Notes: generated by a model not told the origin, from the letters alone. Positions 7,746-30,995 are shown, counted from the first letter of the stretch. The stretch is 64,000 bases of DNA from a virus (IMGVR_UViG_3300032167_005013); one strand, 5' to 3'. Made by a program: numbers and translations.

Positions 7746-8516
7746 TTACTTTACCTCCCAAACTTTACCTTCAAGTTCCTGATTTTCACAATTCTCTAAA
7801 ATGTTAAAAAGGTTTGTCTTCTTAGCCTTCTTCTCATTCTTTTCAAAAACCCAAAATGTTGAAGTATATTTTCTTGCATGCTGTTGTGCCTTGTACTTAC
7901 CTGCAGAAATTAGTCTTGCTTTTGCTTCAAGAATAAACTCATCCTTAACATAAAAACCAAGTTTCTGAGCAGACATGAATGCAAATGGTACAGCCCAAAT
8001 TTCCAAGCCACCCGAAACTGTTGATTGCATTTTAAAAACACAGATTCCTCCGGGTTTAAGGACTCTATAAGCCTCTTTAATCCACCAATATTCATTTTCC
8101 ATAAGTTCACCCACAGGATAAAAGGATGAAAATCTCTTGGCTATCAATGATGAACCTTCTTTGTTATTAACAACACTTGGACAAGCCTTAGGAGAAATCA
8201 CAAATGGAAGGTCAATGACAATTGATTCGATGCTTTCATCTTCCAACGGAAGTTTTTCAAATGGGGTGATTTTACCAACCCTATCAAACTGAGGGAATAC
8301 ATCAAAAAGGTACTTTGGTTCAGGAATATGATATTCTTCACCTTTTCTATCTTCATAGAATTTCAATGTCGAGGCCGTAATATCACAATCAAATGGTTTA
8401 CCACCGTTATGCAGTGTCATAATATTATACAATATCTCTTTTTGGTCATAAGAAATATTGCGTATAATCGTACTGTTATTAAACTCTTCTTTTGTAAGTC
8501 TTGCGTTATCTTCCAT
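7746..8516 (-). CDS. putative SAM-dependent (N6/N4 DNA) methyltransferase-like protein
   Basis: IVIDLPF (a variant of the DPPY/F motif) followed by YRVLKPGGICVF (the RvLKpgG block of beta-class N6_N4 methyltransferases); no clear FxGxG; start moved to ATG 8514-8516 because the ORF-track start is TTG. Confidence 0.35.
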   Translation of the reverse strand: MEDNARLTKEEFNNSTIIRNISYDQKEILYNIMTLHNGGKPFDCDITASTLKFYEDRKGEEYHIPEPKYLFDVFPQFDRVGKITPFEKLPLEDESIESIVIDLPFVISPKACPSVVNNKEGSSLIAKRFSSFYPVGELMENEYWWIKEAYRVLKPGGICVFKMQSTVSGGLEIWAVPFAFMSAQKLGFYVKDEFILEAKARLISAGKYKAQQHARKYTSTFWVFEKNEKKAKKTNLFNILENCENQELEGKVWEVK

Positions 8517-8590
8517 ATATTTAAATTTTGTGCAAATATAGGTTTTTTTCTCCAAAAGACAAAACTATTTATTAAAAAATAAGTTAAGTC

Positions 8591-9022
8591 ATGTGGGGAA
8601 TTTTAAAACAAATATTCTTTATTATATGGCAGTTACCACAGGTACTTGTCGCATTGGTAATGTGGCCATTTCTTGGAAAGAAAAAACTGATTAGAAAAGA
8701 AAACTACTGTTGGATTTATGAATGTGAGGCGATGAGAGGTGGTATTTCTTTGGGTTGTTTCATTTATCTTTCCCCAAGTTGCGCCAAAAGAGAAACAACA
8801 ATACGCCATGAATTGGGACATGTAAAACAAAGCCATTACCTTGGGGTTTTATACTTGCTTATTATAGGCCTCCCAAGTATATTATGGGCTTGGTTAGGAG
8901 ATGACAATAAATGCTATTTTTCGTTCTACACAGAATCTTGGGCAAATAAACTTATGGAGTTGGAAGTTCGAAGTAACGGACGAAGATGTTATCTCTATCT
9001 ACCAAAAGAAAAGGATGCTTAA
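8591..9022 (+). CDS. membrane protein with an HExxH zinc-metallopeptidase motif
   Basis: N-terminal hydrophobic segment plus HELGHVKQSH; the only plus-strand gene within the first 14 kb of minus-strand genes. Confidence 0.4.
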   Translation: MWGILKQIFFIIWQLPQVLVALVMWPFLGKKKLIRKENYCWIYECEAMRGGISLGCFIYLSPSCAKRETTIRHELGHVKQSHYLGVLYLLIIGLPSILWAWLGDDNKCYFSFYTESWANKLMELEVRSNGRRCYLYLPKEKDA

Positions 9023-9023
9023 T

Positions 9024-9482
9024 TTAAGCATCCTTTTCTGTATACTCAACGTTTAAAATTAAAGGGGAGGTATCAGCATAATCAAAATGAAGTAGATTTG
9101 ATAAATCCACTCGGTGAAAACACATGTCTTCAAATTTTCTTTTTCTTACAACTTTTCCACAAGGGTCTAACAAAAGGAATTCAAAAGTAGTTAAAACATC
9201 TTGATTATTTTCAAATTCAGAAATAATTGCATCAATATCATCTTCCGTACCAAGACTAATACCAAATTTTAAAGATGCATTCCCAAAACTAACACTAGTT
9301 ATCCTTAATTCAGGTATTTCCATTCCCTTGGTTGTTCTTAACAACCATCTATGGTGCGTTAAAAAAAAATTATTTTCATTTTTTCCAATTTTTAATGATT
9401 CCATTTTTTTTAATTTAACATTTATTATGGATTGGCATATCAGGTTTAAGATATTGAAAACCCTTTCGCTTTTCCGTCTCAA
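9024..9482 (-). CDS. hypothetical protein
   Basis: 152-aa ORF. Confidence 0.4.
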   Translation of the reverse strand: MRRKSERVFNILNLICQSIINVKLKKMESLKIGKNENNFFLTHHRWLLRTTKGMEIPELRITSVSFGNASLKFGISLGTEDDIDAIISEFENNQDVLTTFEFLLLDPCGKVVRKRKFEDMCFHRVDLSNLLHFDYADTSPLILNVEYTEKDA

Positions 9483-9690
9483 TCAAACGTAGAAATGTTT
9501 GCTGATATTCCGCTGAAAGGAGCCCTCCATTATAATACACACAACCGTGTACCACTGAAATTTCCATACCCGCAGGGACTGCCATGTTTCCAAAACCCCA
9601 TTCTTTCTTAAAAACATATTTCTCAACATCGTTTATGCTACTCTTAGGGGCAAATGTATATGTCTTTATTCCGTTATTTTCCGTTACCAT
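9415..9690 (-). CDS. hypothetical protein
   Basis: 91-aa ORF. Confidence 0.35.
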   Translation of the reverse strand: MVTENNGIKTYTFAPKSSINDVEKYVFKKEWGFGNMAVPAGMEISVVHGCVYYNGGLLSAEYQQTFLRLIETEKRKGFQYLKPDMPIHNKC

Positions 9691-9710
9691 TGTTCAAAAA
9701 TATTTTAATA

Positions 9711-10175
9711 TTATTTTGTATATTGAATTCGATAAGTAGTACCTTTTGCAGCCATATTATATGAATCCACTAACATTTCAGTGACTTTTTTCCACTTATC
9801 CTCAGCTTCACTGAAATTACGTTGTTTTATCCCCATAAAAATCTCACTCTGAATTGTGGCCAACTGTGCGTAAAGAATATTAAGCGGCGAATAATAGTCA
9901 TCAATCTCAACAGACCCTTCACAATCTACACTAAATGTGGTCTCCCACTCTTTTGGAGTATTTTTAAGTTCTTTATAAGACTCAAACTTGGCATATCTTT
10001 CAGCCATATCACGTTCAAATGGGCTCTCCTTTGCTTTAATATCATCTAAAATTTCTTTAACACGCTTAGAATCGCTGTCAGTCCATTTGATTTTCAAACT
10101 GTTAACCTTTTTCTCTTCATTAGCCTTGATGTATTCATTCATCCTGCGTATAAGTTCAATATCGTAATTGTCCAT
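9711..10175 (-). CDS. hypothetical protein
   Basis: 154-aa ORF. Confidence 0.45.
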   Translation of the reverse strand: MDNYDIELIRRMNEYIKANEEKKVNSLKIKWTDSDSKRVKEILDDIKAKESPFERDMAERYAKFESYKELKNTPKEWETTFSVDCEGSVEIDDYYSPLNILYAQLATIQSEIFMGIKQRNFSEAEDKWKKVTEMLVDSYNMAAKGTTYRIQYTK

Positions 10176-14946: not shown

Positions 14947-15570
14947 ATGGCGACGGATAATAGTAATGCTATATACACAGCAGGAGAAATGCAAAATACA
15001 GGGAAGTTCAGTTTCAACACAACGAACATCAATAACGCATCATACATACCAAGTTTAGATATGTGTCCAACAAAAGCCCAAATTACTGCAGCAGCAAAAA
15101 CCGGTTATACTTTAACAATTTCAACAGCCTATAATGCTAAACAACTTGTACCAAGCAAAGATTGGTCTATGACAAAAAACATTGGTAAACTAACAATTCA
15201 TTTTTATACTAGTGCGTTAACATCAAACACAGTATTAAATGGATGGAGATATACAACTTCAACCCTCCCCTCGTTAAAATATAGCTCATTGGAAACAGGT
15301 ACATCTATTTTTTATTGTTCACCAGGTACTTTAAACTCAACTTATACCACAGGTGCGACATTAACCCTTAACACAAGCAAACACAGTACATGGCCAATAG
15401 GTTCTTACCTCTGTTATCTCGTATACATTTGTACAACTCAGACTGGTTATGCTGTATTATCTGGATATTATGAACCATCGGAAGCAAGTCAGTTAAATTC
15501 AGGAACTAACGTTGAAGCACTTAGGAACTGGTCAATACAAACCTTTACTTTTCAAGAATTTTATAGTTAA
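14947..15570 (+). CDS. Ser/Thr-rich hypothetical protein
   Basis: 207-aa ORF with an ATG start, between the operator-like palindrome and a strong terminator. Confidence 0.5.
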   Translation: MATDNSNAIYTAGEMQNTGKFSFNTTNINNASYIPSLDMCPTKAQITAAAKTGYTLTISTAYNAKQLVPSKDWSMTKNIGKLTIHFYTSALTSNTVLNGWRYTTSTLPSLKYSSLETGTSIFYCSPGTLNSTYTTGATLTLNTSKHSTWPIGSYLCYLVYICTTQTGYAVLSGYYEPSEASQLNSGTNVEALRNWSIQTFTFQEFYS

Positions 15571-16462: not shown

Positions 16463-17983
16463 TCAAACTGCATTATACTCACTAATACTCTCAATAAGGT
16501 CTGATAATGTCATAAGAACATATTCAGGGTACTTCTTTGAAACAAAATTTCCTGTCTTAGGGTCAATATCAGCAATTGCCGATATGCTCTTAGGTATATC
16601 CCCATCTTCAGCAAATGCTACTTTTTCATCATATGGCAGGGCTTCAAACGCCTCATTGAATGCATTACGAATTTCATTAATACCCTTTTCCTCTTCCTCA
16701 GCCATTCTCCTATCATAGTCAGCCACAATTTCCTCCCAATTCATAGAACATTCATCAATGAAAGGAATATCGAACTCAGGATGGGCTTTCCAAAAACGAA
16801 TCTCCTTATCTTCCATTGTCATCAACTGTTCATATGTATCTTGGTCGCCTTCCTTATTAGGTTGTCCCGAAGTAAGTACTGATTCTTCCTCGGTAAAATA
16901 TGGACGGTCCTCAGGATTGGTAATAAGAATACGTGTTCTAATATCTTTCGAGAAGCATACAAGAAGAGGTGTGATTCTCTTATTGAACATGTCAATATAC
17001 TTTGCTGAATTATATTCCTCACCTTCCTGACAATATACATCTGTTTCAGAATCAACAATATTCTGTGGAAGAAGTCGTGCGTTAAGAATAATCTCATCCT
17101 CTTTCTGAGCATATGGATAGGCCTTTGTTAAGAATTCATTCATTGTAAGGGACTTGTCCTCTTTCTTATGCGCCTTGAACTCCTTTTCAATTTTAGTGGT
17201 TACATCCACCTTCTCGTGTTCACCGTTTGATAAAGTCTGATATTCATAATATTTAGCCACTTTCTTGACATCAGCCTGTGACTTGCTTTTACCTGTATTT
17301 ACATAATACAAAGTCTCACCCTGCTTGACATCAAGCCCTTCCTTAATTGCCAATTCCATCCATGCCTGACGTGACTTAGGCCTACCTGCCTTAGTAAGCG
17401 TCTTGCAATCCTTAATATAATCTTTAATGTTCTTTTTTACCTTACCCTTGGATGCAATATCCTTAAGCGGAATCTGATAATTGTATATCTTTTCTATATA
17501 AGAATAATATTCATCCAAAAATCCTGAGCCATTGTTCTGCAGAAGCAACCTGATACCTTTTTCAAGAAACTTTGAAATATATATAGGCATTTTCTTGGAT
17601 TTAATGGTATTACCGACAAGTTTCACATCATTAGGAAATGGATTTTCCGGGAAATAATCTGCGTAATTTTTACGTGAGAAGTTGATGGTCGAATCAACAA
17701 TCTCATCTATGCCGAGTCCCATCTTTCCTCGCATATAAAGGTCATTGAACTCAGCGACATCGGCCTTGAAACCTGTATATTTTTGCCCTTCTACGACATT
17801 TCTATTTAGTCCTTTTCCAATGTAAGGGTTTTCGTCAGTATAACGATACTCTGACGGGAGTTTGAAGTTAAATCCGTCAGTATTTGAGATTACATTTAGT
17901 CCCAACGCATTTACAATTGTACCATCACATGAAATATCATAAACGTAATCATCTGTTTTTCCCTTTTTCTCTACTTTAATCAT
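16463..17983 (-). CDS. family-B DNA polymerase, C-terminal half, preceded by a 34-aa split-intein C-part
   Basis: opens MIKVEKKGKTDDYVYDISCDGTIVNALGLNVISN then TDGFNF; the DTDG motif-C remnant comes straight after the intein end; the TTG at 18013 is likely not the true start. Confidence 0.65.
   Translation of the reverse strand: MIKVEKKGKTDDYVYDISCDGTIVNALGLNVISNTDGFNFKLPSEYRYTDENPYIGKGLNRNVVEGQKYTGFKADVAEFNDLYMRGKMGLGIDEIVDSTINFSRKNYADYFPENPFPNDVKLVGNTIKSKKMPIYISKFLEKGIRLLLQNNGSGFLDEYYSYIEKIYNYQIPLKDIASKGKVKKNIKDYIKDCKTLTKAGRPKSRQAWMELAIKEGLDVKQGETLYYVNTGKSKSQADVKKVAKYYEYQTLSNGEHEKVDVTTKIEKEFKAHKKEDKSLTMNEFLTKAYPYAQKEDEIILNARLLPQNIVDSETDVYCQEGEEYNSAKYIDMFNKRITPLLVCFSKDIRTRILITNPEDRPYFTEEESVLTSGQPNKEGDQDTYEQLMTMEDKEIRFWKAHPEFDIPFIDECSMNWEEIVADYDRRMAEEEEKGINEIRNAFNEAFEALPYDEKVAFAEDGDIPKSISAIADIDPKTGNFVSKKYPEYVLMTLSDLIESISEYNAV
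17882..17983 (-). other. split-intein C-terminal part (Int-C, about 34 aa, ends ...VISN; the +1 residue is Thr)
   Basis: intein block F/G-like pattern DDYVYDISCDG..IVNALGLNVISN; inference from motifs. Confidence 0.55.
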
Positions 17984-18217
17984 ATTAAAATATTTTTCAT
18001 TAAGTTTTTGCAAAAATAAAAACTATTTTTCTTTTTTCCAAATATATTTTTTGGGAATGATATACAAGTTACACTAAAAATGCCATAAATAACTGAAGTC
18101 TATACGAAAATGTCTGGACTTTTTATGATATTTATTAAGAAAAAGTAGTATGAATTTACAATACGTTACTGCTAAAAATGTTAGAAATAATTTTTATAGT
18201 GAAAAATAAATATATAT

Positions 18218-18568
18218 ATGGAAAACCGAAATATAATACAACATCTACGTGGAAATTCACCATTATCAATTGGTAAAGCTAAAGAAATAGGAATGCTCCA
18301 AGGAGAAATTGCCATTAAACATGGTGTTAGCGGAGACTCAGAACTTTATGTATTATCACAAGATGGTGAAGCATTAGATATATTTGTTCCCAAATCGTAT
18401 ATTGATTCAAAACTGTTTTATGGTACACAGGCAGAATACGATGCGGCATATGCTGCTGGTAAAATTGCAATAGGCGCAATTGTTGTCATTATAGATGATG
18501 AAGAAAACACAAATGGCGCTTCATCTAAATTAGGTGAGGGTGTAATTGGAGAAATGATTTTAGAATAA
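18218..18568 (+). CDS. tail-fibre N-terminal-domain protein
   Basis: GEIAIKHGVSGDSELYVLSQDGEALDIFVPK resembles the N-terminus of the 56789..58483 fibre. Confidence 0.45.
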   Translation: MENRNIIQHLRGNSPLSIGKAKEIGMLQGEIAIKHGVSGDSELYVLSQDGEALDIFVPKSYIDSKLFYGTQAEYDAAYAAGKIAIGAIVVIIDDEENTNGASSKLGEGVIGEMILE

Positions 18569-18583
18569 AAAATAAATAAAGAG

Positions 18584-19447
18584 ATGATTTTATATATTAA
18601 AGGTGCTAATTTTTCAGCATCAAATATAGGAACACTTAGCACTTATATTGTGCAAAAAACTATGGGTGCAGGTATATCGCACAATATTCCTAATTTTATT
18701 AATAGAAACGAGGAAAACGTAGTATGGACTGTTACATTATCACAAGATTATATATTTGGTGAATATAGTATTGTTATGGGTGGTGAGGTAATAGAACCAA
18801 ATATTCAAGATAATATTATGACTATAACAATTCCAGTAGTAACCAATAACATCAGTATTTCAATTGCAAGCATTTATGAAAATAATGGAGATGGAAGTGA
18901 TGGACAAGAAACAGTTATATTGTTAAACAATAATGTTAATTTCTCAGATTTAAGTGTTTCATCATATGGTCCTACTCAAGGTACAGGTGGTTCTTCATTC
19001 GTAGAAAGATGTGCTCTTTCAGGAGGTACATATGTAGATTATGTTGATTTTTATGTTATCACACCTAACAAAACTTTCCCTAGCGAACCTATAACTATTC
19101 CATATATTAAACTATATTTTGTGGATGCTGAAACAGAAACTGTCGAAGAATTAGTATATGACCAAGCAAATCAATCATCTATTTTATCTGATACTACCGA
19201 AACAAATGGTTATCAAATTATTAGATGTCCTATTAAACGTACATTGCAAAAAAATATTCATCTTGGTATTACAGTAAATGAAGGTTATAGTGATTATTCA
19301 TCATTGTATACTATCCCTTATGTAAATTATACGACTTCTAATAGTATACTTGGTAAACCTTATTTTGGTACAACAATTGTTTTGGGACAAACAGTTGCAG
19401 GAAAAACTGCTAATTATTATTGTCCTATGGTAATTTATGGTTATTAA
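18584..19447 (+). CDS. tail-associated hypothetical protein
   Basis: 287-aa ORF inside the fibre cassette. Confidence 0.4.
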   Translation: MILYIKGANFSASNIGTLSTYIVQKTMGAGISHNIPNFINRNEENVVWTVTLSQDYIFGEYSIVMGGEVIEPNIQDNIMTITIPVVTNNISISIASIYENNGDGSDGQETVILLNNNVNFSDLSVSSYGPTQGTGGSSFVERCALSGGTYVDYVDFYVITPNKTFPSEPITIPYIKLYFVDAETETVEELVYDQANQSSILSDTTETNGYQIIRCPIKRTLQKNIHLGITVNEGYSDYSSLYTIPYVNYTTSNSILGKPYFGTTIVLGQTVAGKTANYYCPMVIYGY

Positions 19448-19479
19448 AATATAATTTTTTTCAAAAAAAAATAATTGAC

Positions 19480-20598
19480 ATGGGTTATACAAAACAAGGG
19501 TTTGTGAAGGGAATGACATTAGAGCATACTCACCTTATTAATATGGAAGATGGAATAATAAGTGCTTCACAAGGAGGTGTAGAGGATATTTATGCATCGT
19601 CATATGGTGTAGTACCTGGTGTTGTTGATATGAGTAAAATGAATGAGTTATTATCAGCAGCCAATGGCAAAACTATTAGGTTTAATGATGGTGAATATAT
19701 TTTTCCTTCGCATATAACAGTCCCTTCTAACATATCATTTATCGGAAACACTAAAACCATATTTAAATTATCAAGTGATAGTGCATCTAATATTCTTTTT
19801 TACATCGTTGGTTCGACTAATGTGACAATTTCAAGAATGTTTATTGATGGCGGGGCATCTAAAGTGCAACCTACGGGTAATGTCGATGATATTCTTGATA
19901 AAACAAATTCAGGCAATCGTTATGGTATTTGGTGTGAAAAAACCAGACGTGTTAAAATTACTGATGTTGATGTTTTAGGATGGGACATGTGTGGACTATA
20001 TTGTGCAGACAACGATTCAGGAGGGGGTGAATATGGCCGTTTCTTCCATACTATAGAAGTGACACGTTCTAGTTTTTATTTTAATTATTATGGTTTGTGG
20101 TTTGCTCAATATGGCGAATATAATCAGGTGGAATGTTGTAATTTTGGTGACAACTTTATTGGTGTTCTAAATGAAGGTGGAAACAATATGTATGTTGGCA
20201 ACATGTTTTGTAACAATTATTGCGGTTTTGCTTTGAATGGGGACGGAATTACTAACGAGTCACACGGAGGCTGTTATAGTTGTACTTACAACCATAATTC
20301 AATTACTGGATTAGGTGGCGGTGTTGCAATTTACATGAATAAAAGCACCGTTGGATGGAATTTTACGGGACAAAATATTTGGTATGGTGCTGTTACATTA
20401 AAAGATTGTAAAGGAGTTATATTTAATGGAAATATTTGGGGTAATGTTCAATTTACAAGTACACATTCAGAAGGATTAAAAAATCAAAATATGGTAACAA
20501 ACACATACTTCCATACCAACCCAAGTGCGGTGTTAAATGGAAATGATGGTTCGACATTTTTTGGACCTTATTTACCTGGGGGTGTGGTTAATGAATAA
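19480..20598 (+). CDS. putative tailspike or depolymerase with a right-handed beta-helix (pectate-lyase-like)
   Basis: repeated N..G / G..N turns and Gly- and Asn-rich beta-helix-like composition; start moved to ATG 19480. Confidence 0.45.
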   Translation: MGYTKQGFVKGMTLEHTHLINMEDGIISASQGGVEDIYASSYGVVPGVVDMSKMNELLSAANGKTIRFNDGEYIFPSHITVPSNISFIGNTKTIFKLSSDSASNILFYIVGSTNVTISRMFIDGGASKVQPTGNVDDILDKTNSGNRYGIWCEKTRRVKITDVDVLGWDMCGLYCADNDSGGGEYGRFFHTIEVTRSSFYFNYYGLWFAQYGEYNQVECCNFGDNFIGVLNEGGNNMYVGNMFCNNYCGFALNGDGITNESHGGCYSCTYNHNSITGLGGGVAIYMNKSTVGWNFTGQNIWYGAVTLKDCKGVIFNGNIWGNVQFTSTHSEGLKNQNMVTNTYFHTNPSAVLNGNDGSTFFGPYLPGGVVNE

Positions 20599-20636
20599 CC
20601 ACACCCCATTTTATAAAACAATAAAAATAACAAGAT

Positions 20637-22520
20637 ATGGCAACATTTTATATACAATTATCCGATAAATTGCTTAAAATAGGTGATGATGTAACTAAAG
20701 AAACAATTCATAAGGCTTTGGGGTATACTCCAAGTAGTTTTTCGGGTAATTTTAATGATTTGACTGATAACCCATTCGCAATTACTGATGATGGGGAATT
20801 TAATATTGTTGACGAAAATGGTAATATAGTAGCAAAATTCGATGATAAAGGTCTGCACGTTATTGATGTTGAAGTTATTTCTGAAGATGGTATTCATAAA
20901 CTTTCTAATAAAGTAGATAAAAATTATGTAGATAATCTAATTTTTAATGCTAATGAAAATTTACCTTTTAAAGAAGATGAATCAGGCTCTTTTGATATTG
21001 CGGATTTAAATGGTAATATAATTACCAGCATAGATAGCAATGGTGTTTCTTCTGTAGAATTTAATGCACGTGGTCATAAATTAACTGAAAAAATTGATAA
21101 TAATATACTTGAAAACCGTTTAGATGATTTAACAACAACTAATTTTTCTTCAGGAGAATATGTTGATATTACTCTTAAACAAGAGAAAGGACGCATTACT
21201 AATGTTAAAATTAGTGACACTAAGTTATCAAACGCAATTAAAATTGATGAAGACCCCGCATTTCAAATATCCGATAACAAAAATAACATTGCATTTAAGG
21301 TTGACGAAAAAGGGGCCGAGGCAGTGGAATTTCGTGCAGGTAAACATTATCTTACTAATAAAACGGAAAGAACTTACGTTGACAATGAACTTTTAAAACT
21401 TCGAGTTGATACTCAAAAATCGATAGGGAATATTAAGTTTTCTGACTTAACTGAAAATCCATTTAACGATTCAGAGGAAGGTACTTTAAAAATTGTCGAT
21501 AATAAGACTAATATAATAGTAACTATAGATAACAATGGCGTAACTTCAACTGAGTTTATTGCAGGAAAGCATAAATTAACTGAAAAATCAGATTTAAATT
21601 ATGTAAATAATAATTTTTTAAACATCAACACTTCAGTTGGCACATTAAAAGACAATATCCAAAATAATGAAAAAAATATATCATCTTTAAGTGATGATGT
21701 AGAAACTTTAACAAATGAAGTTTCTTTAAATACATCTGCTATTACTGAATTGCAAAATATAAAATATGCTTCTTCATCAAGTAAAGGTGGTGCGGCTGAT
21801 AGTGTGGCTAATGCACTAACAATTAAAGCAGGGTCAAGTAAAAACTTTAGTATCGACATTTTCAATGGTAGTTCTGTGACAACAATACCGCTACCAACAA
21901 AAATTAGTCACCTTGAAAACGATTCTAATTTAACTGATGACTTTAACGATGAATTTCATATTATTGATAATGAGGGCAATAAAATTGCGACATTTAATAA
22001 TTATGGCTTATTTGTTTCGAAAGTTACAACTGTAGAACCTATAATTTCTCAAGATTTTATTGCAGGAGAACATAAGTTGTCCAATAAAGTTGATAAAAAT
22101 CATATCGGTGATTCAGTTAAAAATGTTTTATTAACAACAAATGATTTAACCAATGAAGAAAAACAAACAATTAGAAATAACATAGGTTCTGTAAATAGTT
22201 TTGAACAGTATAGTAGTGATGGAGGAATTCTTAACGAGGAACAGTATAGAATAATGTCAAAATATTTATATACCCCATTTATGATTTCTTCTAACAGTGT
22301 GACTACAATACCAGATGAATTATTGAATGAAAGTAAAACAAATTTTTTCTGTGATTGGTGTTGGAATATAATGAGAATAACAGGTGGTGAACCAATAGTT
22401 GTAGTTGAATGGGACGACTATGATAACCCAACTAAGTTTAAAGGTCTTTTGAATGGAGTTACATATGTAGTCAATCGCACTAATTGGACCATTGCTCCTG
22501 AAGACTATTCGGGGGAATAG
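20637..22520 (+). CDS. tail fibre with five copies of an F-x-AGKHKL(T/S)xK-x-D-x-NYVDN module
   Basis: VEFNARGHKLTEKIDNN, EFRAGKHYLTNK, EFIAGKHKLTEKSDLNYVNN, DFIAGEHKLSNKVDKNHIGD, IHKLSNKVDKNYVDN. Confidence 0.55.
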   Translation: MATFYIQLSDKLLKIGDDVTKETIHKALGYTPSSFSGNFNDLTDNPFAITDDGEFNIVDENGNIVAKFDDKGLHVIDVEVISEDGIHKLSNKVDKNYVDNLIFNANENLPFKEDESGSFDIADLNGNIITSIDSNGVSSVEFNARGHKLTEKIDNNILENRLDDLTTTNFSSGEYVDITLKQEKGRITNVKISDTKLSNAIKIDEDPAFQISDNKNNIAFKVDEKGAEAVEFRAGKHYLTNKTERTYVDNELLKLRVDTQKSIGNIKFSDLTENPFNDSEEGTLKIVDNKTNIIVTIDNNGVTSTEFIAGKHKLTEKSDLNYVNNNFLNINTSVGTLKDNIQNNEKNISSLSDDVETLTNEVSLNTSAITELQNIKYASSSSKGGAADSVANALTIKAGSSKNFSIDIFNGSSVTTIPLPTKISHLENDSNLTDDFNDEFHIIDNEGNKIATFNNYGLFVSKVTTVEPIISQDFIAGEHKLSNKVDKNHIGDSVKNVLLTTNDLTNEEKQTIRNNIGSVNSFEQYSSDGGILNEEQYRIMSKYLYTPFMISSNSVTTIPDELLNESKTNFFCDWCWNIMRITGGEPIVVVEWDDYDNPTKFKGLLNGVTYVVNRTNWTIAPEDYSGE

Positions 22521-22580
22521 CATAGACCCCGAAGATACATCAACTAATGATGAAAATGAAATCATAGAAGGAGAATAAAC

Positions 22581-22613
22581 AAACCCAGGATTTTATCCTG
22601 GGTTTACTTTTTT
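22581..22613. terminator. bidirectional terminator (aaacccaggattttatcctgggttt + T-run)
   Basis: 9-bp stem flanked by an A-run and a T-run, between convergent genes. Confidence 0.6.
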
Positions 22614-25146
22614 AACTATTTTTTATCATTTTCTTTACATATTGGAGACCTGCAACAATGGTTTTCGAGTACGTAACCCCCTCCTTATAATTCTCCATGA
22701 ACGAATCGTAGAAAATCTTCATATTCTCCTTTGTTGTATTGAAAATAACGCAGTTTATCTTGCCATTAGGATTGTTTGCCGCATCAATACCAATTTGTTT
22801 CCAATCATCATACGGGAAACGCTTCTGATTAAGCCCCTTTATCTCGCCCTCATAATACTCCAATTTCGTACTTTCATTTATCTCACTTGGTTTAATCTTA
22901 ACCTTATCAGAATTGAAGAGGCTGTGGTCCTCAGTTACTTCCACCCTCATATCACCCTCAGAAACCTCGTATATTGGCTTATCGCACCCATGACGATAAA
23001 TGTATTCAGGTGAAACCCAACCACTTCTACAAAGCACTTCAAACGGCTTTTCTGAATAATCGTATTCCCTACCAAGTTCATCTACTTTAATAGCAAATGG
23101 ATTGATAAGCGTTTCAACAGGAAGAATGTCAATCAGCCCACTATTTTTCCAACGGATAAATAATGGCGTGTCAGGAGTGAAAGAGTCACCAACGATAGGT
23201 TTATAGCCAAGACTATTAAAGTGAGAAATCATAAGGCGAAGGCACATACGACCTGTACATGTTGTCCTCTCAGCACATATCTTGCTTCCCCATGGAAAAA
23301 GATTCTCGGCCCCGTATGACCCGAAAAAGCTATTACCTAACACCTTCATTTGAAGCTGTTTTTTATCATTTGCTGATTCCTCTTTTTCCACCAATTTCAA
23401 TTTATCTTTTAACTCATTAAGTTCATCATCACTACCACTAAAGTTTTTTATACGTTCTTTTAGTTTATCTATTTCTTTTCCTGCTTTTTTCTTAAGTTTC
23501 TTATATTTCTCACGTTCAGTAAGCACATATTCAAGGAACTTAAGCATTGAATCCATAAGGTCTCTACCATGAGTAATTCCCCATGTAAGAATAATTGACG
23601 GATAAAGTGAGTTAAAGTCAAATTTCGCAACATTATCAACAAATCCTACTGTGAGAAGTCTTGAGAGACCACCTGTAAATGTTCCACCTTCACCGAACTG
23701 TGGGATTGCGAGACCGTTTTCATATGACCAAGCAAGCATCAAACTTTTCCACTGTCCCGCAGTTCCCATTGTACAACATTTCTGGTATGGGACCGGTAGC
23801 ATTTTACATATAAGAAAATTGGTTGTATTGTAACGATGTTCTACCTTATCACATTCCCAAAGGTCATCAAGAAGATAACGTTCAACAATGTACTTTCCTG
23901 TGGTAGGTAAATAACCGGCCTTAATTGGTTTATCTTCAGTTACTTTATACCAATCACCATTTTCATTATTCAATGCATATGTGTTAACAGTATCATTCCA
24001 TGTATCTGAAATCTTGTCACCCGGTACATAGACACGGTTAACCTTTTCCATCTTTGAATACTTGGTAACGTACTTAAGGTCAGCCTTAAGCATATTACTG
24101 TCAATTGCCTGAGCGCGTCTTACCGCATGGAGAGAATCTGTCACAATTATTCCCGGAACGATTGTCTGCTTGAACTGTTCCACCTCACCACCAAGTTTAA
24201 GGACTGTATCCTTGGTATTCTTTCTAATAACATCATCACCAAACATTTTCATCTCCTCACAAATGTACTCAATTGGATAGTCAAGTTGTTCACATCTTGT
24301 GATAATGAAGTTCCAGTCGAAGTTTTCTCCATTATGTGCCGTAATGACGTCAGGATTAAAATATTGAATCATTGAAAGGAATACCTTAATGTTGTGCAAC
24401 TCACTTGCATCACGTTCTTCCTTTGTGTTTCCTGTTACTGTGAGGATGCGTTCAAAATCAACTTTTTTACCCTTATACATCACAGGACGATTAAAACGCA
24501 CACCAATCTGATTGATTCTATTATATCGAGGGTCGAGGCCTTCAGTCTCCAAGTCGAATATCATCCTCAAGAGTTTATCATAATCTTCATACCCCTTAAA
24601 GAATCGTTTTCCTGTGGATATCATGAACTGTTCCTGTGGAGTTACCACAAGATACTGTCTTTCATCTGCTTTTGAAACGAAATTCTCATTTTCCTCTTCT
24701 TCTGAGTTATCATCAGCCTTTGATTTCGAATATAAAGGGTTTTCGGCTTCTTTAAAGAATTTTGAAAATCTCTGATATGACATCGGCCTTTTTGCATAGA
24801 ACATGAAGATATAGCCATTGTCAGCGATTTCGGGAACCACTTCACCTTGATTATTCTTTGTATCAAGGACTTTTATGCCAATTCCAAATTCACGCATTAG
24901 GCGTTGCACTTCAGAACGGTCTCCATTGCAAAGTTTCTCACAGGCTCTTCGTGTTGCCCACACGAATGGACGGAATGGTTCCATCTTGTAGTGTTTAACG
25001 TCATTTGCGTCCCTGTAGAACACTTTTATTTTATCTTCATTGTACTTATATTCAAGATTTACGATACGTTCCTGAGGGTCGGTACCATTAATAAATGAAT
25101 TGATTACATCGGTCGTAATCTCTGTTTTTCTCTGAGGTTCAAGCAT
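22612..25146 (-). CDS. family-B DNA polymerase, N-terminal part (3'-5' exonuclease plus polymerase motifs A and B), fused to a split-intein N-part
   Basis: Exo I FDLETEG; motif A DFNSLYPSII; motif B KVLGNSFFGSYG; Tx2GR TTCTGR; then ...YKPIVGD / SFTPDTPLFI (intein block A) ... VEVTEDHSLF (block B); ATG start. Confidence 0.75.
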   Translation of the reverse strand: MLEPQRKTEITTDVINSFINGTDPQERIVNLEYKYNEDKIKVFYRDANDVKHYKMEPFRPFVWATRRACEKLCNGDRSEVQRLMREFGIGIKVLDTKNNQGEVVPEIADNGYIFMFYAKRPMSYQRFSKFFKEAENPLYSKSKADDNSEEEENENFVSKADERQYLVVTPQEQFMISTGKRFFKGYEDYDKLLRMIFDLETEGLDPRYNRINQIGVRFNRPVMYKGKKVDFERILTVTGNTKEERDASELHNIKVFLSMIQYFNPDVITAHNGENFDWNFIITRCEQLDYPIEYICEEMKMFGDDVIRKNTKDTVLKLGGEVEQFKQTIVPGIIVTDSLHAVRRAQAIDSNMLKADLKYVTKYSKMEKVNRVYVPGDKISDTWNDTVNTYALNNENGDWYKVTEDKPIKAGYLPTTGKYIVERYLLDDLWECDKVEHRYNTTNFLICKMLPVPYQKCCTMGTAGQWKSLMLAWSYENGLAIPQFGEGGTFTGGLSRLLTVGFVDNVAKFDFNSLYPSIILTWGITHGRDLMDSMLKFLEYVLTEREKYKKLKKKAGKEIDKLKERIKNFSGSDDELNELKDKLKLVEKEESANDKKQLQMKVLGNSFFGSYGAENLFPWGSKICAERTTCTGRMCLRLMISHFNSLGYKPIVGDSFTPDTPLFIRWKNSGLIDILPVETLINPFAIKVDELGREYDYSEKPFEVLCRSGWVSPEYIYRHGCDKPIYEVSEGDMRVEVTEDHSLFNSDKVKIKPSEINESTKLEYYEGEIKGLNQKRFPYDDWKQIGIDAANNPNGKINCVIFNTTKENMKIFYDSFMENYKEGVTYSKTIVAGLQYVKKMIKNS
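22885..23184 (-). other. split-intein N-terminal part (Int-N core about 100 aa beginning with Ser at 23182-23184; roughly 90 more residues continue to the stop at 22612)
   Basis: block A SFTPDTPLFI (compare CLSYDTEILT) and block B TEDH; inference. Confidence 0.5.
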
Positions 25147-25224: not shown

Positions 25225-25255
25225 TAATATATGTGCAAATATAGAAATAAGGTTT
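25225..25255 (-). promoter_or_regulatory. CTATATTTGCAC -7 box upstream of the polymerase N-half gene (the 13-mer tgtgcaaatatag also occurs at 8531-8545)
   Basis: TAnnTTTG consensus; seen in sequence. Confidence 0.4.
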
Positions 25256-25268
25256 GAATAAAACAAAA

Positions 25269-25295
25269 ATAAAGAGTCTTATTCAAACTCTTTAT
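25269..25295 (-). terminator. terminator hairpin (ataaagagtcttattcaaactctttat) with a T-run on the minus strand
   Basis: 7-bp stem; on the minus strand it is followed by atttttgtttt. Confidence 0.45.
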
Positions 25296-25845
25296 TCAGG
25301 TGTTTTTTTAATATAAACAAATATTCAGTTGTATGAATATCTCGTTCTCTAAGGTTTCTGCTGCCTCTAAACGCAACGTAATCAATATTTTTAACTTTTA
25401 ATTCCCCATATTTAGAAAGCATTTCTACCATTTCCTCATAAGAAATAAACCCTTCATTGTTATATGATATAATCAAATATTTTGAATCAATATCACTAAC
25501 AAGTTCTTCAAATGTTTTTAGGGCGTCATTTTTCTTATTATAAGACGATTTGTTCCAATCATCAGGTATTCCCGCGACTTTACTAATGTTAGAACCTATT
25601 TCATTCTTTATAATAGTATTAAGCATGAAATAATTAGAACCATATGGATGTTGATTATATGGTGGGTCTATATAAGTTATATCAAGCCCTTTAAGATGTT
25701 TTACCAAGACATTAGCATCCTCTTGAAAGAGACGCACATTTGAATTATAATTGGAAAACACGGGTTTTTTTAACTCTATTTTTCCCATTATACGTTCAAG
25801 GGCATTTAAACCGTTTGTCAATCTTCTTTGTAATCTTATCACCAA
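25279..25845 (-). CDS. orphan C-terminal half of a Dam-type (D12 class) N6-adenine DNA methyltransferase
   Basis: SNVRLFQEDANVLVKHLKGLDITYIDPPYNQ aligns with the E. coli Dam segment ending VVYCDPPY; no FxGxG motif I; ORF-track start is TTG and the first ATG is at 25788. Confidence 0.55.
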   Translation of the reverse strand: MVIRLQRRLTNGLNALERIMGKIELKKPVFSNYNSNVRLFQEDANVLVKHLKGLDITYIDPPYNQHPYGSNYFMLNTIIKNEIGSNISKVAGIPDDWNKSSYNKKNDALKTFEELVSDIDSKYLIISYNNEGFISYEEMVEMLSKYGELKVKNIDYVAFRGSRNLRERDIHTTEYLFILKKHLNKEFE

Positions 25846-25908: not shown

Positions 25909-26637
25909 CTATATTATCATTTCATAAATTTCTAAAATTGCAGATGGTGGGATATTATCTTTGGTATAAACTCCATAACTATAATTGGGGTCAAGATAGA
26001 AATCAATGTTTTCAGGAATCTTACTTACATCAATTATTAACAAACAATGCTTATCCTCGTCCTGTTTTACGGTTTTAAGTTGTTTTGTAAGGCTGTATAT
26101 ATCATCAGGAGGTGTATCTTCAACAAATAGGTACACTCGTTCAGGATAAGAGAATAGTGGGTTTTTAAATCTCGGTGATAAACCTATTTTACTAATCTTT
26201 TCAACGTTCTTTTCGGAGGTAACATGATATATTCTATCCATACTCCTTACATACTTGTTTACATCATCCTGATTTTTAGGTTCAAAGTTAAGATATACCC
26301 AATTATCAATATACGGATAATCATTTTCAACAGAACAAAAATAGCCACATAAATCCATTGCTTTCTTCACTTTGTCAATGATGTTCTCATTGTTAGGTAT
26401 GATTACACGAAGTTTTTCAACTTTGTTATTACTGAAAACCTCTATCTGACTATCATCAAAATCATATAAATCAATGATATATTTTCTCGTTTTCTCTATT
26501 GGATAGGTTCTAATTAGGCCTTCCTCCAAGAAATTTCGTTTTTCATGAATCGCAATGGAAAGAGGGTTTCCATAAGAAAAATTCTCAATCACCCCTCTTT
26601 TCTCATTCCATTTCTTGATTATCCGCTTGCTAATCAT
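25909..26637 (-). CDS. hypothetical protein
   Basis: 242-aa ORF; no methyltransferase motifs. Confidence 0.45.
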   Translation of the reverse strand: MISKRIIKKWNEKRGVIENFSYGNPLSIAIHEKRNFLEEGLIRTYPIEKTRKYIIDLYDFDDSQIEVFSNNKVEKLRVIIPNNENIIDKVKKAMDLCGYFCSVENDYPYIDNWVYLNFEPKNQDDVNKYVRSMDRIYHVTSEKNVEKISKIGLSPRFKNPLFSYPERVYLFVEDTPPDDIYSLTKQLKTVKQDEDKHCLLIIDVSKIPENIDFYLDPNYSYGVYTKDNIPPSAILEIYEMII

Positions 26638-29613: not shown

Positions 29614-29830
29614 GGTTATTCCATTGCAGTCAACTACACCCACCTAAAGGAGGGTGCTTGACACTGCCTCGTTAGAGGCATGTCGATTGGGAGGTTGACT
29701 GCTCCCTGCCTGTAAGGATAACCAATTGACCTTCAATTGGTAAAAAACTCGATACAGGGTGGTTGGACCTTTGTCCGATATTAATCGCAGCATTCCAATC
29801 TGAGTCAAAGACAACTCCGTCAACGCAGAT
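29600..29830 (-). ncRNA. candidate omega RNA (right-end RNA) overlapping the tnpB 3' end and extending past the IS right end
   Basis: GC-rich structured segment 29641-29720 (hairpin gacatgcctc-taac-gaggcagtgtc) in an otherwise AT-rich genome; position matches known TnpB omega RNAs; not verified. Confidence 0.3.
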
Positions 29831-30995
29831 ATATCTGCGACCACGGCGCTCTCCATCACGATTATTGGTGCGACAATCCATCTGACTTGTATACATCGGA
29901 GAAACTGTTTCCACCTGCTTGCCCGCAAGTGGTGCCTTGTAAGTCAATATACGTTTAAATTCATAAAATGGAATCTGAGATAAAGCATTGTTATGCTTCG
30001 CTCTCTTGTACCCCTCACTGGTACGTGAAGTTTTCTTTTTAATCTTTGTGAGGTCTTCCATCACAATGATGGAAGCATTTGTACTATTAATGAGTACTTT
30101 ACTTGCACGATAACACATGTCCTTAGAGAGGTTGCGTTCCTTGTTGCGAACTTTCTTAAGGTGGCGCTTTGCTGATTTGGTACCTTTCTCTTGTAGTTTA
30201 CGCTTAAGATAACGGATGTCCCTACGCTTCTTAAGATATGTTGTATCTTTAAATGCCTTACCCTCTGAGGTAACAAATATCATTCTTGCACCGAGGTCAA
30301 CACCTATGCACTCCTCAGAATGTAATGGTTTTTCAGGTACTTCGAAGGGTACTGAAAGGAAGAAATTCCCGTTTCTATAGAATATTGTAGGGTCATATGC
30401 CTTATAAGTACTAAGCATTTCTTTTGCCTTAGGATAGACATTAAAAGGTACGAAAGTACGTTTGTTTTTCTGTGCCCCAGTAATGGTTATTCCTTCAGAT
30501 GTAAGCACTCCGTAGAGGCGTTTATCGAGGGTCATTGTTAATGATTTTCTCTGTGGTACTTCAGCGTTCTTATGTTTGTTTGCTTTAATTGATTTCAAAG
30601 CAGACGCTGCTGCTTGTTCGCACTTGATTACCATCTGTGAAGATAAAGCAGGAAACTCTGTCCTAATTACGTTATAACACGCCTCGTGTACTTTTTTAAG
30701 TGACAGTGTTATTTTGTTATCATGTAGAATACGTGTACACCTATTGTACGCATCTCTTGCACATACAAGAAGATTGTACCAATGCGTTGCATTGGTATCA
30801 TCCATTATTAGAGGTATGTTATAGGTTTGTACAATCATAGCATTCACGTATGTGATTTCTATATATAAATATTATAATAAATTAAAAAGTTTTATTTTTT
30901 TTTAAAAGTTATATATTTACATTAAGAAAATAATGTTTAACCAAAAAGGGTTTAATCGTAGTTCCTCTCCACCCTAAAGGATGGAGTTTCCCTAC
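29620..30995 (-). mobile_element. IS200/IS605-family element carrying only tnpB (IS1341-like), about 1.35 kb
   Basis: TnpB ORF; related subterminal hairpins at the left end (ctccaccctaaaggatggag, 30968-30987) and right end (cacctaaaggagggtg, 29641-29656); 10-bp inverted repeats 29625-29635 / 29693-29702 bracket the right end; boundaries approximate. Confidence 0.5.
29672..30838 (-). CDS. tnpB: TnpB (OrfB), an RNA-guided nuclease of the IS200/IS605 family
   Basis: RuvC-I GVDLGARMIF; C-terminal zinc-ribbon / RuvC-III region RYICVDGVVFDSDWNAAINIGQR (compare the canonical HADxNAAxNI); N-terminal YNIPL...YN; GTG at 30847 or ATG at 30838. Confidence 0.7.
   Translation of the reverse strand: MIVQTYNIPLIMDDTNATHWYNLLVCARDAYNRCTRILHDNKITLSLKKVHEACYNVIRTEFPALSSQMVIKCEQAAASALKSIKANKHKNAEVPQRKSLTMTLDKRLYGVLTSEGITITGAQKNKRTFVPFNVYPKAKEMLSTYKAYDPTIFYRNGNFFLSVPFEVPEKPLHSEECIGVDLGARMIFVTSEGKAFKDTTYLKKRRDIRYLKRKLQEKGTKSAKRHLKKVRNKERNLSKDMCYRASKVLINSTNASIIVMEDLTKIKKKTSRTSEGYKRAKHNNALSQIPFYEFKRILTYKAPLAGKQVETVSPMYTSQMDCRTNNRDGERRGRRYICVDGVVFDSDWNAAINIGQRSNHPVSSFLPIEGQLVILTGREQSTSQSTCL

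Follow-up and report, generated by a model that had tools for sequence, protein, structure and literature searches.

A phage family-B DNA polymerase encoded in two separate genes and very probably joined by a split intein in motif C

How does a phage make its replicative DNA polymerase when the two halves of the protein are encoded by separate genes, with four unrelated genes on the opposite strand lying between them? This question is raised by a 64,000-nucleotide stretch of viral DNA (IMGVR_UViG_3300032167_005013; hereafter the window, with positions counted from its first letter), in which two minus-strand open reading frames (ORFs) each encode part of a family-B DNA polymerase (PolB). A first-pass annotation had proposed that the halves are expressed separately and then joined within polymerase motif C by a natural split intein. 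Our analysis leads to the same answer: the replicative PolB is very probably joined from two gene products by a natural split intein lying within motif C, a reading supported by relatives that show the site in three states, by intein profile and fold matches, by invariant catalytic residues and by promoter and terminator motifs. The source is a large, jumbo-type gut or rumen phage. Nucleotide and protein searches of a deposited-phage collection found nothing close, the only matches being Salinibacter phage PolBs at 23-26% identity.

Both ORFs, and the motifs first quoted for them, are present in the translations, and they divide as follows.

22612-25146, minus strand: N-half ORF, 844 amino acids (aa), family-B polymerase up to ...PIVGD654
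23185..25146, minus strand: N-extein, PolB residues 1-654 (exonuclease domain, motifs A and B, to ...YKPIVGD), placed by Pfam, PDB alignment and tblastn
22819..23184, minus strand: HINT part of the N-intein, ~122 aa, from Ser1 (SFTPDTPLFI, block A) to ...TKLEYY
22615..22818, minus strand: tail of the N-intein, ~68 aa (ORF residues 777-844), a four-helix remnant of a LAGLIDADG homing endonuclease
22612-22614, minus strand: stop codon of the N-half
16463-18013, minus strand: C-half ORF as listed, 516 aa from TTG 18013
17882..17983, minus strand: C-intein, 34 aa, MIKVEKKGKTDDYVYDISCDGTIVNALGLNVISN (blocks F and G, terminal Asn), placed by homologues and alignment
16463..17881, minus strand: C-extein, 472 aa from TDGFNF (rest of motif C, thumb and C-terminal region) plus stop, placed by contiguous homologues and tblastn

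The 844-aa translation contains FDLETEG, DFNSLYPSII, KVLGNSFFGSYG, TTCTGR and ...YKPIVGD, and Pfam matches it to DNA_pol_B_exo1 and DNA_pol_B. In a phmmer search of the PDB, residues 488-654 align with residues 382-540 of Thermococcus/KOD PolB; because this alignment ends at KOD/Tgo D540, D654 is taken as the first Asp of the motif C DTD, the point at which the polymerase-like part ends. The following 190 residues begin with SFTPDTPLFI and run to the stop codon. After a further 4,628 bp, the distance separating the stop of the N-half and the start of the C-half and in agreement with the 4.6 kb first described, the C-half reads MIKVEKKGKTDDYVYDISCDGTIVNALGLNVISN and then TDGFNF (...VISN/TDGFNF). 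By itself, the C-half has no match in either Pfam or PHROGs. While its ORF exists as listed from TTG 18013, its homologues begin at an internal Met, so that the true start is ATG 17983 and the C-intein has 34 aa. The predicted spliced length is thus 654 + 472 = 1,126 aa, which matches the contiguous homologues and corrects an earlier estimate of about 1250 aa.

The strongest evidence for joining comes from relatives of this locus. A search with the C-half returned 1,412 related protein clusters, mostly stand-alone proteins of 505-530 aa, on contigs of up to 372 kb, and 80 IMG/VR loci around such relatives were fetched and typed by tblastn. The polymerase is contiguous and has no intein in about 42 of these 80 loci, is contiguous with an intein of 355-358 aa in eight (L044, L058, L059, L062, L065, L066, L070 and L081), and is split in about 28, where an N-intein of 175-198 aa is followed by a stop and the gap measures 1.6-8.1 kb. 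The contiguous polymerases P0094, P0103, P0115 and P0070 read ...PIVGDTDGFNFKLP... (PIVGDTDGFNF) across the junction, which is the predicted ligation product; aligning the exteins with contiguous genes of related phages, as had been suggested, thereby supports the proposal that IVGD and TDGFNF together make motif C. In polymerase P0109 the same site is occupied by a contiguous intein, and the sequence reads PIVGD/SVTYDTPILIQY...EDHSLF...LAGLIDADG domain...YVYDISANGTFVNALGMITCHN/TDGFNF. In this protein and the eight IMG/VR loci the Pfam LAGLIDADG_3 domain is clear, and the contiguous inteins align end to end with the N-intein plus C-intein of the split forms. The C-half of split relatives opens with MxKVxxKGK..YVYDISLDGTVVNALGxNVxSN/TDGFNF. 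In all, at least 85 distinct N-parts and at least 86 distinct C-parts were retrieved, and the C-intein is exactly 34 aa long in 67 of 86 distinct homologues. The junction pattern lies far beyond chance.

Two related loci are broken in other ways. In L025 (IMGVR_UViG_3300028591_000072, 8164-10000), an intein-less PolB is broken 9 codons past motif C (TDGFNFKLP/...) by an interruption of ~1.8 kb that includes a DUF723-type endonuclease gene. No intein pieces were detected in this locus; the break would be either an intron that went unrecognised or a fracture without an intein. Repair at the RNA level by a group I intron was considered and rejected, as Rfam at its gathering threshold gave nothing in the window or in L025. 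The other locus, L002 (4454-4714), has a C-half that consists of the C-intein plus TDG and a stop, and resumes 147 nt further on at MRGKMG. Its C-extein is 87% identical to that of the window at the protein level, and the break would come from a frameshift, from pseudogene formation or from misassembly.

The residues at the two junctions are those expected of a splicing intein. S655, directly after ...IVGD, is Ser1 and is invariant in alignments of 22 and 38 sequences. The full set of invariant residues comprises Ser1, D5-T6-P7 (block A), R64-H65, T84/D86/H87 (block B, here TEDH, which fits T-x-x-H), D206 (block F), N224 and Thr+1, so that the blocks A, B, F and G and the terminal Asn of the initial description are borne out. 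The NX motif reads YIYRH in the window, with H65 invariant in all three alignments and R64 invariant in two and present in at least 90% of sequences in the third; a His preceded by Arg or Lys in this motif has been reported as specific to Ser1 inteins (PMC10189870). Blocks F and G of the C-intein read ...YVYDISCDG...VISN/TDG, and Thr+1 is found in all relatives. These features, together with insertion between D and T of motif C (D/TD), point to a class-1 intein of the Ser1/Thr+1 type at the pol-c allele.

Profile and structure comparisons agree with this assignment. When fused split inteins and contiguous inteins were combined into a family profile, the profile matched the Aes123 PolB1 split intein in its fused form (PDB 9HTH, E=5.9e-5) and two TFIIB mini-inteins (E=3e-4 and 1e-3), its C-terminal block aligning with ...VLHN. 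In an AlphaFold model with a multiple sequence alignment for the N-intein, the predicted local distance difference test score is 84-97 across residues 1-190, and the N-intein is modelled as a HINT fold. Foldseek on the first AlphaFold model gave the same picture, with the intein PolB16 OarG as a structural match. A C-terminal helix in that first model was rejected as spurious, MAFFT having placed the tails of other N-inteins onto the C-intein of the query; the alignment was restricted to the N-intein because fragment rows were not reliably alignable in local tests. Across 23 diverged split loci, identity is 62% for the HINT part of the N-intein and 72% for the C-intein, compared to 51-52% for the exteins, and this better conservation of the splicing parts is an argument for selection on splicing function. 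In the contiguous relatives, the position of the break falls after endonuclease block H and before block F, indicating a naturally split intein, divided at the canonical split site, with its halves in two genes.

Signals that could allow each half to be transcribed separately were sought by pattern and terminator scans, the calls from which are consensus matches.

25236..25267, minus strand: TTTG N20 TAnnTTTG, a promoter motif of Bacteroidota type ahead of the N-half
22577..22609, both strands: terminator-like hairpin, bidirectional, where the N-half and ORF D (a gene of the opposite-strand cassette) converge
18011..18042, minus strand: TTTG N20 TATTTTTG, a promoter motif of Bacteroidota type, 28-59 nt ahead of the C-half ATG

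The hairpin follows directly after the N-half stop, has a 15-pair stem on the minus strand and an 11-pair stem on the plus strand, and is accompanied by a T-run. Within 90 nt upstream of the C-half, TAnnTTTG is found in 15 of 25 distinct split loci (5% expected) and the full TTTG-N20-TAnnTTTG motif in 9 of 25 (0.4% expected), an enrichment that fits separate transcription and a Bacteroidota host.

Several observations weigh against this reading. In block G, Ser stands in place of the penultimate His, as it also does in most split homologues. The fused window intein scores 17.9 bits (E=0.0028) against Pfam Intein_splicing (PF14890), under the gathering cut-off of 35.8, and this family is not reported for the N-half alone. 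A contiguous relative, P0109, also reaches just 27 bits on PF14890, and the intein family is divergent from the seed of that model. The C-intein stays undocked in the final AlphaFold model, for which the alignment covered the N-intein only. The promoter and terminator support consists of consensus matches, and trans-splicing is a prediction from sequence, relatives and fold.

In the pathway that we infer, the first gene, with its own promoter-like motif and a terminator at its end, would yield the N-extein (654 aa) followed by the 190-aa N-intein, and the second gene, with a promoter-like motif of its own, would yield the 34-aa C-intein followed by the C-extein (472 aa). The two intein parts would associate as one HINT domain, Ser1 would attack the preceding peptide bond, Thr+1 would take the N-extein, and the terminal Asn would cyclise. 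Ligation would then produce a 1,126-aa polymerase of about 131 kDa with an uninterrupted motif C, IVGDTDGF, for which the predicted junction peptide is ...GYKPIVGDTDGFNFK and the predicted tryptic form is LMISHFNSLGYKPIVGDTDGFNFK.

The two chains could alternatively form a non-covalent polymerase without splicing, in which the intein fragments act as a dimerisation module, by analogy with some T4-like phages, whose gp43 is split without an intein, or with the split PolB of Methanobacterium. Split PolBs that are not spliced, and a fragmented ribonucleotide reductase assembled via interaction domains derived from mobile elements, are documented (PMC2677866; PMC3045599), and the L025 polymerase, in which the break falls 9 codons further on and no intein was detected, would be in keeping with such an arrangement. 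We nevertheless consider it unlikely for the window, where 224 aa left unspliced at the break, inside the metal-binding DTD, would disrupt the active site. Moreover, the residues of splicing chemistry, beyond those of association, are invariant in more than 80 diverged sequences.

It is less likely still that the locus is a decaying polymerase pseudogene, split by insertion of the cassette in a phage that uses another polymerase. The apparent frameshift in the C-half of the close relative L002 and the highly variable content of the gap could be taken as signs of decay, but both ORFs of the window are intact, intein and exteins are under clear constraint, the split architecture recurs in more than 1,400 protein clusters on contigs of up to 392 kb, and no second polymerase was found among the window ORFs scanned.

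The additional segment at the end of the N-intein was initially described as a tail of about 90 aa after block B, of unknown role; about 30 aa after block B instead belong to the splicing domain, leaving a non-HINT tail of ~68 aa, and both alignment and hhalign identify the latter as a degenerate LAGLIDADG domain. Alignment with the contiguous 355-358-aa inteins accounts for the tail as the endonuclease left after two deletions, of ~88 and ~40 aa (~130 aa in total), and in hhalign the tail profile falls on positions 230-283 of a contiguous intein (P=2.9e-5). The first LAGLIDADG motif is degenerate, reading IGIDAANNPNG in the window and LANGxID, LADGEID and similar in relatives, among which its acidic position varies between D, N, E, K and S. 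Block D is likewise degenerate in the window (KINCVIFN; RVP..LN in relatives), and the second LAGLIDADG helix is present without GDG. Block H is retained, as YSKT..AGLQYVKK in the window and YSKT..AGLQ(Y/F)LK in general form. The two motifs with catalytic acids and the domain of ~200 aa that mark an active LAGLIDADG endonuclease are not found in the N-intein tail, which is best read, from its sequence, as an inactive vestige. The tail is less conserved than the splicing domain, being 43% identical where detectable and missed by tblastn in 14 of 23 split loci; a retained structural role is possible.

The gap itself also bears on the history of the locus. In relatives it holds one to three genes on the polymerase strand, with DUF723/DUF4379 zinc-ribbon repeats, often a Mom-like domain, and a weak PD-(D/E)xK (REase_MTES_1575) match. 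When an L002 protein was used for tblastn, endonuclease-like genes were found in the gap of most split loci (e.g. L002, L003, L006, L009), and no endonuclease homologue was found in window positions 18014-22611. The original statement that the gap contains no homing endonuclease is therefore correct for the window, which is the exception among its relatives. Homology of the window to its closest relatives ends at 18053 and 22618, and a short scar of the gene remains.

18023..18052, minus strand: scar of the lost endonuclease gene, its last 8 codons KYIWKKEK and stop (27-30 nt), matching L086

The same residues form the C-terminus of an intact DUF723/Mom-type endonuclease gene that precedes the C-half in L086, and L087 has a 16-codon remnant of this gene.

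We would place the window at the end of a series of events. The ancestor would have been a contiguous 355-358-aa intein with a LAGLIDADG endonuclease, as still present in related phages. This endonuclease would have lost ~130 aa and its catalytic residues, after which the gene was broken at the canonical endonuclease position, apparently by an invading free-standing DUF723/Vsr-like endonuclease gene. The lineage of the window would later have lost this free-standing gene, with the gap taken by a four-gene, probably tail-fibre, cassette on the opposite strand.

Genes around and inside the gap are reshuffled among close relatives. The left edge of the cassette (18053-18144) is ~80% identical to L003:149-240, a stretch of intergenic DNA bearing a terminator hairpin that sits after an InPase gene, elsewhere in the genome of that relative; this likeness suggests replacement by recombination. 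A 242-aa ORF upstream of the N-half (window 25909-26637, minus strand) has a homologue at L003 6977-7702 (75% nucleotide identity), which lies between the polymerase halves of that relative. The DUF723/DUF4379 endonuclease-like genes are multicopy within a genome (L002 2653-4338; L003 5811-9942; L002 11616-12749), and some are fused to a Mom-like (DNA-modification) domain, which is unusual for a homing-endonuclease-like gene.

The cassette that now occupies the gap consists of four plus-strand ORFs.

18218..18568, plus strand: ORF A, 116 aa, no annotation
18584..19447, plus strand: ORF B, 287 aa, no annotation
19480..20598, plus strand: ORF C, 372 aa from ATG 19480 (listed from 19420), weak tail-protein match
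20579-20607: terminator-like hairpin at the end of ORF C
20637..22520, plus strand: ORF D, 627 aa, repeat-rich, tail-fibre-like by the domains of its homologues and by context

No Pfam or PHROG match was found for ORFs A and B. ORF C, which is also called as 372 aa in two further loci, L088 and L089, matches PHROG 25268 'tail protein' (E=4.4e-8) over just 62 residues. ORF D has 102 homologues, several of them with Phage_fiber_2, SASA, GDPD, Big_2 or Laminin_G_3 domains, and in other jumbo-phage contigs such homologues belong to long modules of genes that all point the same way, among them genes for Peptidase_S74 and GDSL esterases. Searching PDB sequences with ORFs C and D returned no match, IMG/VR scans with the same two ORFs found no relatives, and cassette homologues are present in none of the first 87 PolB-flanking loci (L001-L087). 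A role of these genes in tail-fibre formation or host recognition is plausible from such matches; the receptor-binding cassette of the first-pass annotation has in this sense partial support, from ORFs C and D, with the other two of its four ORFs unannotated. A lone 207-aa ORF on the plus strand (window 14947-15570), rich in Ser, Thr and Asn and without a family match, is surrounded by replication genes on the minus strand, immediately on the far side of the ATPase gene that comes after the C-half, and is kept in L088 and L089.

The G+C content is 36-39% in the polymerase flanks and 29-32% over 18-22 kb, where the sign of the GC skew also flips. The identical 627-aa ORF D protein occurs on contigs of up to 349,824 bp, and at least 23 contigs that carry it (ENA, JGI and Logan assemblies) collapse to two places, L088 and L089, both with the order C-half, 116, 287, 372, 627, N-half and the same neighbouring genes, which rules out a one-off misassembly. 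That the 4.6-kb separation is a metagenomic artefact, the halves being adjacent or contiguous in the real genome, is accordingly highly improbable, since the metagenomic origin of the window and the lower G+C of the cassette are outweighed by these 23 contigs, by the clean stop, terminator, promoter motif and start codon at the half boundaries, and by the many split versions with other gap contents.

Split PolB inteins are already known, and the window adds another member to this arrangement. In the Neq Pol of Nanoarchaeum equitans, the halves are ~83 kb apart in the genome and the N-intein is ~98 aa long, with no known endonuclease remnant. The Neq Pol split intein (Choi et al. 2006) occupies the same position as that of the window (PMC549080), in an archaeal hyperthermophile rather than a phage. 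The pol-c site, YGD/TDS with Ser1, terminal Asn and Thr+1, is found in archaeal PolBs and in Mimivirus (PMC549080). These contiguous inteins share their insertion point, Ser1, terminal Asn and Thr+1 with the window, and the contiguous relatives of the window (L058 and others) carry a LAGLIDADG endonuclease. However, contiguous pol-c inteins splice in cis, whereas the window intein has a vestigial endonuclease and is divided between two genes. The Aes123 PolB1 split intein of T4-like Aeromonas phages (120 + 39 aa; PMC11923092; PDB 9HTH) comes from another phage lineage, lacks a LAGLIDADG remnant and is just 16-21% identical to the window intein. PolB16 OarG, from a PolB of a sheep-gut metagenome (PMC10189870; PDB 8CPN/8CPO), resembles the window in being a split intein in PolB motif C from a gut metagenome, with Ser1 oxyester chemistry and a structural match. 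It differs in lying two residues downstream (after SGDTD), in having Ser+1 and in its atypical split of 15 + 168 aa, and is a different intein. Since both the site and split PolB inteins have been published (PMC549080, PMC11923092, PMC10189870), the novelty implied at first was overstated.

The relatives of the window show exactly the arrangement of the 'fractured genes' of Dassa et al. 2009 (PMC2677866), with the N-part and N-intein, a free-standing endonuclease gene (DUF723 repeats, PD-(D/E)xK Vsr-like), and the C-intein and C-part all on one strand. The window corresponds to the last step of that model, endonuclease loss, and differs from it in having only an 8-codon scar and unrelated opposite-strand genes in the gap. 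PolB is not among the fractured enzymes quoted in the available text of that paper (PMC2677866). In a 274-kb contig with a split PolB relative (GCA_016648615.1), an IMPDH gene contains the intein domains Hom_end_hint and PT-HINT; as IMPDH is itself a fractured enzyme in Dassa 2009, phages of this type appear rich in inteins. Jug (jumbo gut) phages of Bacteroides/Phocaeicola have genomes of 360-402 kb, the standard genetic code and many introns, inteins and endonucleases, and the available text of their description (PMC12880540) gives no account of a split intein or of polymerase trans-splicing.

Two further features of the window concern mobile or truncated genes. A TnpB/IS605 OrfB-like transposase gene (29672-30847, minus strand; PHROG 506, E=2e-42) is 89% identical in DNA to L003:20395-21535, compared to 74-80% for neighbouring shared genes, which suggests a recently shared mobile element. 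A fragment of a D12-class adenine methyltransferase (25279-25845, minus strand; 188 aa from a TTG start) covers the Pfam and PHROG models in their C-terminal part only, and the gene may be truncated or split.

We regard it as rather doubtful that the split is anything beyond a tolerated scar, and three such roles may be imagined. The dead LAGLIDADG remnant might have been kept for a new purpose, for example the solubility of an aggregation-prone N-fragment or the binding of DNA or a partner. The separate promoters, with a late-type tail-fibre cassette between the halves, might time or gate polymerase assembly. Lastly, the gap of a fractured gene might be a reusable landing pad for cargo genes.

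What distinguishes this locus is the vestigial LAGLIDADG domain on the N-intein, the full evolutionary series within one clade, and the cassette that replaces the endonuclease. At one site, this clade includes the empty state, the contiguous intein with endonuclease, the split form with a free-standing endonuclease, and the split form in which the endonuclease has been lost and replaced; with all the gene-breaking steps in one clade, the pathway becomes testable by phylogeny. A large and diverse family of Ser1/Thr+1 split inteins thereby joins the few that have been characterised, and could supply protein-ligation tools for use under oxidising conditions, although non-catalytic cysteines are present in the native sequence. 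For phage genomics, a C-half without a Pfam domain looks hypothetical in more than 1,400 clusters, and its recognition restores a complete polymerase to jumbo-phage genomes.

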